Positions 19,821 to 22,914 of a stretch of DNA of 25,471 nt are shown here, piece by piece (the first letter of the stretch is position 1; every line of letters begins with the position of its first letter). The stretch is from contig JBGAQA010000065.1 in the NCBI GenBank assembly GCA_044220955.1, forward strand, positions 12,612 to 38,082. Reading direction: 5' to 3'. The stretch comes from Sandaracinaceae bacterium (GTDB lineage Bacteria > Myxococcota_A > Polyangia > Polyangiales > Sandaracinaceae). The notes below the pieces were generated by a model. It did no database searches and was not told the DNA's origin. It was given only the letters and a program-made list of their open reading frames with translations. Position numbers and translations under genes: made by a program.

Positions 19821-20207
19821 TCAGTGCCAGACGTGCTGGAGCGCGCGCCAGCCGGGCGAGCTCGCGTCGCCCGTCGGGGTCACGACGACCAAGCACCGGT
19901 CGCGGCTCTCCGTGAGCGCCTGCTCGCGCTGCGAGAAGTCCTCCAGCGGAAACGACTCGGGGAGCGCACCGGGCCAGATCCACACGCAGACCCGCACGGT
20001 GTCACCCGCGCTCGTCGCGGCGAAGCACTCGCTGCGGACGACGTCGGGAAACGCCGCCGCACGTGGGTCGCTCGGCGACGACGCAGCGAGCGTGTAGCCC
20101 GCCGCGCTCAGGTTGGCGCGGACCTCCGCGGCGCTCGCCGCGTCGTGGGCGCACGCCGCGAGGAGCGGGATCGCCGACAGGGTGATGGCGGGTCCGGCTC
20201 GTCGCAT
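19821..20207 (-). CDS. hypothetical lipoprotein
   Basis: [21 protein letters not shown]-n-TAGCCT -10 box 7 nt upstream. Confidence 0.65.
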
Positions 20208-20240
20208 GGCGAGGAGGCTACCACCGCCTATCATCGCGCG
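20208..20240. promoter_or_regulatory. putative divergent leaderless promoter pair
   Basis: TAGCCT on - (20215-20220) lies 7 nt from ATG 20207; TATCAT on + (20229-20234) lies 6 nt from ATG 20241. Confidence 0.6.
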
Positions 20241-20798
20241 ATGGTGCGTCCTGACGACGAGGCGCTCGCGGATGAAATCGCGGACGAGTCGTCACGCCGT
20301 GTCGATCTCGCGGGTGAGAGTCCCGCCCGGGAAAGCGTCGGAGCGCCCGGTAGCAGGCCCCCGGTGCGGAGCCGAAAAGCTCTGGCCGAAGCGGGGCGTC
20401 GAAAGCCTGGTGAAAGAGACAGGGAGCGAAGCTGCGGGCCGCAACGCGCAGTGAACGCCGAGCAAGCCTCGTCAGATTATCAGCCGAAAGGTGATTGGGA
20501 GCGCCGAGACGGTCATTTCGCGTCGAAGGCCATGCACAGCGCGCCAGATCCGGAGCGCGCGCTGGGGCTCCCCGGGGTAGTGGCGGCGGCACGCAGCGAC
20601 AGATCGACAGGGAACAGGAGAGGTCCGTCCTCGCAGCATTCGTCGTGCGAGGCGGCGCGTATAAGCGCAGAGCGCGAAGTCGCGTCGTGCGAGGCGGAAG
20701 TCCGAGGGGGTCGTAGTACCGACGAAGCGGCGGACAACGCCGCGGAGGGAAGGACCCCTGCTTCGGTCGTGTGGGCGGATGCAGGTAAGCGCGAGGGC

Positions 20799-22211
20799 AT
20801 GCCCGCGAGGGCCAACGACCCCGCAGTGAAAGTGCGAGAACTGCAACGCGCGCTCTATCGGTGTGCCAAGCGGAGTGGGACGAGGCGCTTCCATGCGCTG
20901 TACGACCGGATCTGCAGGCGTGACGTCCTGCAGGAAGCATGGAAGCGCGTGCGCGCGAACGGCGGAGCGGCCGGCGTCGATGGTGAGAGCATCGATGCGA
21001 TCGAGCGGAGCGGGGTCGAGCAGTTCCTCGCGATGATCGAGGCAGAGCTACGCGAAGGCGACTACCGCCCGAGCCCGGTGCGGCGGCAGAACATCCCGAA
21101 GAGCGACGGCAAGCTGCGTCCACTCGGAATCCCGACGGTGCGGGATCGAGTGGTGCAGCAAGCGACGAAGCTGGTGATCGAGCCGATCTTCGAAGCGGAC
21201 TTCCGTGGGTGCTCCCACGGCTTCCGTCCGAGGCGCGGCGCGCTCGGTGCCAAGGAAGCCATCCGTGTGATGGCGAACCGCGGCTACAACTTCGTCGTCG
21301 ACGCGGACATCCGGAGCTTCTTCGACAGCATCGATCAGCAGAAGCTGATCGCGCTGGTGGAGGAGCGGATCTCGGATCGGCGAGTCGTGAAGCTGATCCG
21401 ACAGTGGCTCGGTGCGGGCGTGATGGAGAGCGGCAACTTCCGCGAGACGATCGCGGGCACGCCGCAGGGAGGGGTGATCTCACCGCTCCTGGCGAACATC
21501 TACCTGCACGCCTTCGATCGAACCTGGCAAGCCGAGCACGGTCACGTCGGCGAGCTGGTGCGGTACGCGGACGACTTCGTCCTGATGTGCAGGTCGGAGT
21601 CGGCAGCGAAGGAGGCGCTCGTGCGCGCGAGAGAAATTCTCGCGCGTCTCGGGCTCGTGCTGCACCCGGACAAGACGCGTCTCGTCGACCTGCGAGGCGG
21701 CAAGGAGGGCTTCGTCTTCCTCGGCTGCGTGTTCCGGAAGCGGCGCAGCATCCAGCGGGCGCCGCACAAGCACTTCATGCAGCGGTGGCCCTCGCCGCGC
21801 GCGATGAAGCGCATCCGGGAGCGGGTCCACGATCTGACCGACGTGCGGCGCACGCGCGCGAGCGACGTGATGGAGATCATCGCGGCGCTCAACCCCGTGC
21901 TCCGCGGGTGGGGCAACTACTTCAAGACCGGCAACGCGGACACGAGGTTCAACCAGATCGACGACTACGTGCACGAGCGCATCGTGCAGTGGCTCGGCCG
22001 ACGCGGTGGACAGCGCACGCGCTTCTGGACCTCGAAGTGGCCCTCCACCCGGCTCCACGAGATGGGCCTGCACCGACTTCGCGGAACCGTCCGCTATCCG
22101 TCGCAAGCCACCGAGCAGAGACCGTCGGTAAGCCGTGTGCGGGAAACCCGCACGCACGGTTTGAACGGGGGTCCTGACGTCAACCGCCGGCCGCGGCCGG
22201 CTTTGGAGTAA
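20799..22211 (+). CDS. ltrA: group II intron reverse transcriptase/maturase
   Basis: RT0 [66 protein letters not shown] domain [12 protein letters not shown]; no HNH domain. The frame is also open from ATG 20241. Confidence 0.96.
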
Positions 22212-22224
22212 GGATCTACCAATG
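22130..22224 (+). ncRNA. group II intron catalytic domains V-VI
   Basis: AAGCCGTGTGCGGGAAACCCGCACGCACGGTTT, followed by the GGGGGTCCT/AGGATCT(A)CC stem. Confidence 0.95.
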
Positions 22225-22809
22225 CGGGTGTTCCGGAGCGTGTGCGTGTTCTGCGGCTCGAGCATCGGCGGCGATCCGCGCTTCGCGCAGAGCGCGCGGG
22301 ACCTCGGTGCTCTGCTCGCCGCGCGCGGCATCGAGCTCGTCTACGGCGGCGCGAGCGTCGGTCTGATGGGCGTCGTCGCCGACGCGGCGCTGGCCGGCGG
22401 CGGGCGCGTCGTCGGCGTCCTGCCGCGCGCGCTCGCCGACCGCGAGCTGGCTCACCGTGGCCTGAGCGAGCTGCACGTCGTGTCCTCGATGCACGAGCGC
22501 AAGGCGCGGATGGCCGCGCGCTCCGACGCGTTCGTCGCCCTCCCTGGCGGGCTCGGTACCCTCGACGAGCTCTTCGAGATCACGACGTGGGCGCAGCTCG
22601 GCATCCACGACAAGCCCATCGGCGTGCTGGACGTCGGCGACTACTATGCGCACCTCTTCTCGTTCCTCGAGCGGGCCGAGCGTGATGGGCTCGTGCGCGC
22701 GGCCCCTCGCCCCGCGCTGCACCGCGCGAGCGCGGCGGAGGTGCTCCTCGGCGCGATGGCCGCTCAGCCGCCGCGCCCGGACGCCGCGCCCGACGTACCG
22801 CCGCCCTGA
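22222..22809 (+). CDS. LOG-family nucleotide phosphoribohydrolase (TIGR00730-type); original ATG at 20241-20243
   Basis: VCVFCGSS, LVYGG..VGLMG, MHERKARM, PGGLGTLDELFE. Confidence 0.93.
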   Translation: MRVFRSVCVFCGSSIGGDPRFAQSARDLGALLAARGIELVYGGASVGLMGVVADAALAGGGRVVGVLPRALADRELAHRGLSELHVVSSMHERKARMAARSDAFVALPGGLGTLDELFEITTWAQLGIHDKPIGVLDVGDYYAHLFSFLERAERDGLVRAAPRPALHRASAAEVLLGAMAAQPPRPDAAPDVPPP

Positions 22810-22914
22810 ACGCGCAGGGCCTGCGCCGTGGGTCGCAGACACTGCGCGAACGGGCGCGGTTTCGCTCGTTTCGCGGCCACCGGGACTGGCCGCGGCCTTG
22901 CACGCCGCGCGGGC

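Follow-up and report, generated by a model that had tools for sequence, protein, structure and literature searches.

A mobile group II intron probably inserted between the start codon and the second codon of a leaderless-type LOG gene

How could a mobile intron settle between the start codon and the second codon of a gene and still leave that gene translatable? The question is raised by a stretch of 25,471 nucleotides (nt) from a Sandaracinaceae bacterium, here called the window, in which a group II intron of 1981 nt separates the ATG of a LOG gene from the rest of its coding sequence. Taken as a whole, the comparisons below make it likely that a mobile group II intron has entered a leaderless-type gene at this point, that its site is defined by two short exon pairings in the context of a -10 box, and that the element would capture the host promoter and AUG and be removed by splicing.

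At the left junction, with the layout cgcgATG/GTGCG, the host triplet tatcatcgcgcgATG (20241-20243) is followed by GTGCGTCC (20244 onward), and 20229-20256 reads ...ccTATCATcgcgcgATG/GTGCGTCCTGACG...; at the right junction the intron tail CTACCAATG, ending in GGATCTACCAATG (22222-22224), runs into CGGGTGTTCCGG, which opens with the CGG of the LOG gene (22210-22236 reads ...AAGGATCTACCAATG/CGGGTGTTCCGG...). These junctions are as the original prediction described them, and its claim that the LOG frame returns only with an end at G22224 stands as well: ATG20243 joined to C22225 gives ATG CGG GTG TTC (MRVF...), whereas a joint at T22223 leaves one G extra and the frame is lost. The open reading frame (ORF) at 22222-22809 is a Lysine_decarbox/LOG protein by Pfam, and homologues without the intron, MRTFRRVCVYCGSS in L025 among them, align with its N-terminus, MRVFRSVCVFCGSS, from the first residue on. 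Judged from the letters, only the removal of 20244-22224, or of an equal length shifted inside the ATG repeat, would restore the LOG gene. With an ATG at either side, registers 0, -1 and -2 restore the exons equally well and are not told apart by this criterion. The prediction had also called for an intron-less LOG allele. Homologues do match at the N-terminus; a close allele is absent from 40 related genomes, where the best LOG relatives are at most 60% identical and served for the N-terminal comparison only. The search for exact empty sites gave, from a sister genome, orthologues (75-80% identical) of the genes that host L050 and L054; these have a conserved -10 box and a single ATG and do not fix the splice register.

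The element itself is apparently an intact, endonuclease-less group II intron of the mobile type, as judged from its motifs and domains. It has a GUGYG 5' end, domain V (D5), domain VI (D6) with a bulged A, a reverse transcriptase (RT)/maturase ORF in domain IV, and pairings of exon-binding sites (EBS) 1 and 3 with their intron-binding sites (IBS) in the exons; the usual A-pyrimidine 3' end is not among its features, as EBS3 covariation gives a UG end. The Rfam model group-II-D1D4-4 (RF02003) is matched over its full length (model positions 1-138) at 20308-20449, with 75.7 bits against a gathering threshold of 49 and an E-value of 3.5e-15, and the D5/D6 model (RF00029) at 22128-22223 with 42.4 bits against 40. 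In the fold, A22218 is the bulged base of D6 and is followed by CC and an unpaired AAUG. The RT ORF, which runs through D5 and D6 to the TAA at 22209-22211, contains RVT_1 (3.9e-36) and GIIM (2.9e-15) and matches TIGR04416 from end to end with 421 bits against a cutoff of 300. Pfam finds these two domains and no endonuclease domain in ORF 20799-22211, and the protein, read against its own consensus, stops soon after the maturase region.

The intron is not a solitary case. Further copies in the window's own genome are about 68% identical and have junctions of the same types, and a similarity search with the RT returned 50 loci from many phyla. From these loci, the window, two copies in its own genome and one copy on an Embleya plasmid, 37 5' junctions could be placed. 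The triplet in front of the intron is ATG in 34 of them and GTG, ACG and GCG in one each, and all 43 of the 3' ends finish in ATG, as CTACCAATG (40), TTACCAATG (2) or CTACCGATG (1). Where enough sequence follows the terminal ATG (37 cases), the ORF that begins there stays open over 50 codons or more in 35; as frame +2 does so in 27 of the 37 in these GC-rich genomes, openness is a weak test, and Pfam matches were used instead. Among 36 ORFs of at least 40 codons, 30 were submitted to Pfam and 17 of these belong to unrelated families, with domains that often begin at profile position 1-4; the hosts include LOG, gamma-glutamyltranspeptidase, an NtrC-type regulator, aldehyde dehydrogenase, Ser/Thr kinases, VKOR and inositol monophosphatase. 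Several other downstream ORFs have lipoprotein-type signal peptides directly after the ATG. The expectation that relatives would carry ATG/GTGCG...CCAATG/ in front of unrelated genes is thus borne out, and the start-codon junction pattern is far beyond chance.

Some copies depart from the common layout in their own ways. In L072 (913-950) and L097 (900-935), whose hosts are unrelated, a copy of the intron's first eight bases, with ATG behind it, stands ahead of the intron (...GTGCGTCC-ATG^GTGCGTCC...), and L072 has three tandem xTGCGTCCATG units; the repeat could be the footprint of an earlier copy or a product of slippage. In the metagenome locus L127 a copy lies directly behind the CTACCAATG end of another copy, so that the introns are in tandem, and EBS1 position 4 and EBS3 mismatch the flanks. 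Two other metagenome copies, L147 and L154, have CTACCAAAG and CTACCAAGG as their 3' ends where ...AATG would be usual, with EBS3 still matching the next base, and these ends are probably decayed terminal start codons. The mosaic at 818-1680 of L006 (G000:C34) has a full D1D4-6 Rfam match and, about 540 nt further on, a 5'-truncated RT tail, D5/D6 and a TTACCAATG end, and looks like a rearranged or nested intron remnant.

The preference for start codons has a counterpart in the intron RNA. EBS1 of the window copy, CAUU at 20514-20517, can pair with G20243, U20242, A20241 and G20240. The loop is CAUGY in most relatives, and its column complements the final four exon bases in 31 of 36 copies, with compensatory changes across copies at exon positions -3, -4 and -5: a GAUG exon end is met by CAUU in five copies, of which the window is one, the UAUG of L046 by CAUA, and the GGUG of L002 by CAUC. 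An independent metagenome set was fetched with a D5 pattern, and 21 5' ends were placed by pattern; four that do not start with GTGCG, TTGCG or GTGTG were dropped, and the 17 remaining junctions have CAT, CAC or CAA opposite ATG (14), GTG (2) or TTG (1). As aligned, the EBS1 loop tracks the three bacterial start codons.

In introns of the IIB type, the partner of EBS3 is the base that opens the 3' exon. The candidate for EBS3 here, the base behind a conserved GGGGUA, forms a Watson-Crick pair with the first base after the terminal ATG at 31 of 32 sites and a G-U pair at the other, in three pair types, a result matched in 0 of 10000 shuffles; pairing to position +2, to +3 or to the G of ATG is at chance level (12 of 32 for the constant G). 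The metagenome set repeats this with 17 Watson-Crick pairs, one G-U pair and two mismatches in 20, and adds the fourth pair type; of the mismatches, one belongs to a tandem insertion and the other to a truncated copy in which the motif match is out of context. By the IIB rule the 3' exon would start at C22225 and the intron would end at G22224. The invariant U on the 5' side of EBS1 and the invariant A on the 5' side of EBS3, present in all 36 aligned copies, fit a delta-delta' pair. For EBS2, no intron column did better than shuffles at exon offsets 3-15, so that recognition by RNA would cover about five bases and the promoter context would have to act through protein, DNA state or selection.

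The 3' end was also predicted from two structural points, and both agree with the relatives. The J2/3 junction reads GTC-CGA-GGGG (20700-20709), with GTCCGA invariant in the 28 lineage copies that match the search pattern. Of the outgroups, L098, on a Streptomyces plasmid, has GTC-GGA and the D6 tail A-CCC-UAC, and L096, on a Paenibacillus plasmid, has GTC-CGA and a likely D6 tail A-CUC-UAG. The proposed gamma base therefore goes with the terminal base as anticipated, G with a C end in L098 and C with a likely G end in L096. Six bases follow the bulged A in the window (A22218-CCAAUG), as in L096, L098 and the Rfam consensus, which is the spacing that the prediction expected. In five more outgroups (L075, L080, L082, L083 and L088) the patterns used picked up no usable J2/3 or D5. 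The comparisons support an intron that ends in G and not in the usual A-pyrimidine, for which we propose a swapped C-G gamma-gamma' pair. Another relative, L095, is found on many Leptospira interrogans plasmids and has RTs 55% identical to that of the window; its D6 tail is A-CCCUAC, its end seems canonical, and its site is not obviously a start codon. Sub-lineages in Solirubrobacterales, Planctomycetia and other metagenome-assembled genomes begin with UUGCG (L063-L067, L070, L077) or UCGCG (L043, L061); they lack the 5' G of GUGYG, yet several of their copies are found at different sites with the same CUACCAAUG end.

A further regularity, absent from the first reading, is found upstream of the insertion sites. 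A TANNNT hexamer lies 6-7 nt before the 5' triplet at 31 of the 37 sites, against 5 matches over 38 other offsets; the six exceptions have CACAAT, AACAAT or GATAAT, a spacer of 5, or a local duplication, and one is an outlier. The metagenome set has the box in 12 of 17. A -10 box 6-7 nt ahead of the start codon is the geometry of leaderless promoters, as reported in actinobacterial transcript-start studies. In the window's genome (72.5% GC), 221 of the 11027 first ATGs of long ORFs (2.0%) have the same arrangement. This census itself peaks about tenfold at TANNNT spacers of 6-9, so the -10/start architecture is a real feature of the host; the spacers of 8 and 9 have 105 and 115 matches over a background of about 12 (G000). 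These figures suggest that many genes of this organism have leaders of 1-3 nt.

We considered whether the hexamer travels with the intron, and this was rejected: near-identical copies stand behind different hexamers, and intron-less orthologues keep theirs. Five copies that differ by a few percent lie behind TAGGCT, TAGAGT, TATAAT, TAGGCT and TAGCAT with differing spacers. The hexamer is conserved in intron-less orthologues; in L094 the intron-less gene reads gtgcTAGGAT-cgacacc-ATG-GCA, as compared to gtgcTAGGCT-cacgcac-ATG^intron in the occupied L054, and an intron-less LOG homologue has TATGGT-N6-ATG. To judge from this arrangement, the targets of the lineage are leaderless-type genes. On the opposite strand a divergent ORF (19821-20234, -), without a Pfam family, has its start region over the LOG -10 region and a lipoprotein-type signal from its second Met at 20208.

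If the start codon is taken over together with its promoter, it may serve the intron as well. ATG 20241 heads an open frame of 656 codons (20241-22208) that leads into the RT, another feature absent from the first reading. From A20241 to the conserved AUG of the RT itself there are 558 nt (186 codons), and over this distance there is no stop in frame 0, with three in frame +1 and eight in frame +2. The same in-frame, stop-free connection is present in 18 of 29 genome copies, in which domains I-III (D1-D3) are 546-588 nt long, and in 9 of 11 from the metagenome set; the two alternative frames of these in-frame copies have 2-9 stops. From these frames we infer that ribosomes starting on the captured 5' AUG would read into the RT.

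Put together, these elements outline a probable course of events. By sequence comparison the intron RNA reads its target through two short pairings only, that of EBS1 with the start codon and one or two bases upstream of it, and that of the EBS3 base with the first base of codon 2. The 5' splice site accordingly falls behind the ATG and the 3' one behind the AUG that closes the intron, which makes G its last base. Transcription would start with the A of the ATG or beside it, and the intron, driven by the host promoter, would then have about three bases of 5' exon in front of it. In the window copy and most relatives, ribosomes on the captured AUG could cross the stop-free D1-D3 and continue into the RT. 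Splicing would restore a leaderless AUG-CGG... message, and the unspliced RNA would still offer AUG-CGG..., with the Shine-Dalgarno (SD)-like AAGGA 7 nt upstream of it in the window copy.

The last step concerns the prediction that the host gene remains intact with or without splicing. An SD-like AAGGA does stand at this distance from the terminal ATG in the window, in favor of translation from unspliced RNA; an SD-like tract is found in 27 of 43 copies and is thus not general, and the unspliced case is drawn from sequence. Three metatranscriptome runs and one DNA run, as assembled contigs only, were compared with 19900-22900. Contigs from the RNA libraries match stretches of the intron exactly (for example, 20459-20875 and 20551-20812). 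None of them bridges a junction, contains an exon-exon joint or extends upstream of 20258, and rare junctions are undetectable from contigs.

This silence of the RNA libraries would also be expected if the window copy were an immobile relic that no longer splices, with LOG made only from the intron's terminal ATG, for which the AAGGA 7 nt ahead of that ATG would be well placed. Against this, the RT has an unbroken frame in which RVT_1, GIIM and TIGR04416 are matched at full length, D5, D6 and J2/3 match the lineage consensus, and EBS1 and EBS3 still fit their own flanks; as contigs are unable to show rare junctions, we think a relic improbable. More improbable still, in our judgement, is a canonical A-pyrimidine end, in which the intron would end at U22223 and start one base earlier (AU/GGUGCG) with the same exon product, the constant G then being the first base of the 3' exon and the delta-delta' pair being formed IIA-style with the C on the 5' side of AUGY. 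The covariation described above argues against this, since the base behind GGGGUA follows the base after ATG (31 of 32 Watson-Crick) and not the constant G (12 of 32, or chance), and in IIB-type introns the EBS3 partner is the first base of the 3' exon; moreover, the delta U and delta' A adjoin EBS1 and EBS3 in 36 of 36 aligned copies, gamma is C, and register 0 keeps GCG invariant at intron bases 3-5. The canonical end has in its favor that the Rfam alignment ends at AU, that registers 0, -1 and -2 yield identical ligated exons, that the loop-target helix CAUGY/RCAUG is unbroken in either register, and that 9 of 37 copies have a U at the called intron base 1, for which only the G of ATG would supply a 5' G.

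The role of the -10 box is a matter of closer balance. The intron may not recognize the promoter at all, and insert wherever (R)CAUG/N fits EBS1 and EBS3, with copies persisting only behind a leaderless promoter, where the intron is transcribed, the RT translated and the host gene spared. Such a survival filter would agree with the lack of any RNA pairing to the -10 region or the spacer, with the tandem copy L127, which sits behind the terminal ATG of another intron without a -10 box, and with the in-frame ATG-to-RT arrangement, which would tie RT expression to a 5'-terminal AUG. A specificity of about five bases, on the other hand, would permit thousands of sites per genome, and among 54 5' junctions (37 and 17) the tandem L127 is the only one clearly not next to a promoter; most of the other exceptions have near-miss hexamers or spacers of 5, 8 or 9, L047 is an outlier without a start codon, and decayed and ORF-less copies are also at promoter-adjacent sites. 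We take selection of this kind to be a serious possibility, somewhat short of probable. A bolder reading is that the ribonucleoprotein (RNP) recognizes the geometry of the -10 box and the start codon itself. The promoter-start codon unit would then be a fourth target specificity; the intron would capture the host promoter and a 5'-terminal AUG, have its RT made by leaderless translation through domains I-III, and keep the host gene translatable, spliced or not, by its AUG tail and C-G gamma pair. One possibility is that the non-template strand opened by RNA polymerase is the single-stranded DNA substrate of the RNP. In this full form the reading is tentative, and we would call it possible and not likely.

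Several observations weigh against the course of events outlined above. No splice junction, lariat or transcript start has been observed, the readings being comparisons of sequence, and EBS1 may bind a 5' exon of 3 nt too weakly for exon ligation. A two-hexamer sigma-70 scan of 19900-20500 returned no -35/-10 pair. The in-frame arrangement is missing in 11 of 29 genome copies and 2 of 11 metagenome copies, which are out of frame or have stops, and D1-D3 of L050 and L052 differ by 16, 12 and 7 substitutions at codon positions 1, 2 and 3, without a third-position bias, a pattern in which openness and not protein sequence is kept. At the ends of the intron, Rfam's D5/D6 alignment stops at U22223 and fits the A-pyrimidine consensus, and the 5' end is GUGCG in 26 of 37 copies and another sequence in 11 (seven UUGCG, two UCGCG, two GUGUG). 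Gamma and the terminal base are both invariant within the lineage, so that the evidence for their pairing comes from two outgroups, and RNAalifold places C20703 in the D2 stem.

Table 1. Coordinates of the intron, its parts and its flanks in the window, with the evidence for each. IEP, intron-encoded protein.
Feature	Position	Strand	Evidence
TATCAT, a -10-like hexamer in the LOG promoter (host and not intron DNA)	20229..20234	+	TANNNT spacing statistics, orthologues
Host start codon ATG, final three bases of the 5' exon and IBS1 core	20241..20243	+	pairs with EBS1
Group II intron, 1981 nt, 5' GUGCG ... 3' CUACCAAUG	20244..22224	+	Rfam, IEP domains, EBS1/EBS3 pairing
Part of domain I matching Rfam group-II-D1D4-4	20308..20449	+	75.7 bits
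Delta U20513 and EBS1 C20514-A-U-U20517, in a 9-nt hairpin loop of domain I	20513..20517	+	alignment column, fold
Delta' A20579 and EBS3 G20580 (after GGGGUA); EBS3 partner C22225	20579..20580	+	covariation
J2/3 CGA, with C20703 as proposed gamma, partner of G22224	20703..20705	+	invariance, outgroups; assignment uncertain
RT/maturase ORF from its own conserved AUG (GAGGGCAUG)	20799..22211	+	RVT_1, GIIM, TIGR04416
Domain V	22130..22163	+	RF00029 alignment, fold
Domain VI, with bulged branch-point candidate A22218 and SD-like AAGGA at 22210-22214	22167..22220	+	fold, Rfam alignment
AUG at the 3' end of the intron, with G22224 as its last base (gamma')	22222..22224	+	3' ends of relatives, EBS3 pairing
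3' exon, LOG (Lysine_decarbox) coding sequence from codon 2 to stop	22225..22809	+	Pfam, N-termini of homologues

Among known group II introns, those of class C (IIC) insert after transcription terminators or attC hairpins, and they are the closest functional analogue of the present lineage as far as these comparisons go. The two have in common a minimal pairing (a short IBS1 and IBS3, without EBS2), an RT without an endonuclease domain, and a specificity apparently supplied by non-coding DNA beside the site, in the form of a signal with fixed geometry. In terms of similarity and not of a class tree, the closest solved RTs are entry 7uim (1.1e-59), which we take to be a IIC enzyme, and the GsI-IIC RT 6ar1 (2.8e-59), with the maturase RT 6me0 at 8.9e-51. 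Unlike in class C, the signal is a -10 box with a start codon and not a hairpin, the insertion is at the first codon boundary inside a gene and not after it, and the 3' end is non-canonical; 19900-20500 has no terminator-like site of the kind at which class C introns insert. A second parallel is found in the yeast mitochondrial introns aI1 and aI2, organellar group II introns in which the RT ORF is in frame with the upstream exon. Here too an open frame joins the upstream exon to the intron ORF through domains I-III; the differences are that the exon part would consist of the host start codon only, that the host is a bacterium, and that the arrangement is deduced from the frames alone.

A IIB1 lineage at initiation and termination codons, that of Michel et al. 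2007, is described in the available part of Gomes et al. 2025 (PMC12584367) as having an endonuclease-containing RT and a 5' insertion of 300-700 nt, with the studied members in the groEL stop codon. On that account the two resemble each other in being inserted at a start or stop codon of a host gene whose reading frame survives. They differ in that the RT of the window has no endonuclease domain, that its D1D4-4 core begins 64 nt from the 5' end of a 1981-nt intron, and that its lineage ends in AUG and targets the leaderless-type starts of many unrelated genes. Three bacterial target specificities (homing sites, terminators and attC), and no start codons, are named in the part of Zimmerly and Semper 2015 (PMC4424553) that was available, and the available portions of Waldern 2020, Nagy 2013, Toro 2013, Miura 2022, Abebe 2013 and Edgell 2011 make no mention of a start-codon lineage ending in AUG. 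In the searchable literature no paper was found on introns that sit at leaderless starts or have AUG as their last bases; Michel 2007 and Simon 2008 could bear on priority. The lineage is widespread and, as far as the literature can be searched, undescribed.

A lineage keyed to leaderless start codons would, if true, be a fourth target specificity of bacterial group II introns, and its 3' end would be a natural case of an end other than A-pyrimidine with a swapped gamma pair. It raises the puzzle of group II splicing with a 5' exon of about three bases, and suggests a bacterial intron that borrows the promoter and start codon of its host for its own enzyme, with ribosomes crossing the ribozyme. 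Since CAUG and one EBS3 base behind a -10 box could mark leaderless genes from sequence alone and across phyla, the introns may also be of use as indicators, and their arrangement is a natural design for gene-sparing insertion. A carrier that is cultured and non-pathogenic, Embleya sp. NBC_00896 (copy L097), makes experiments on the lineage practical.

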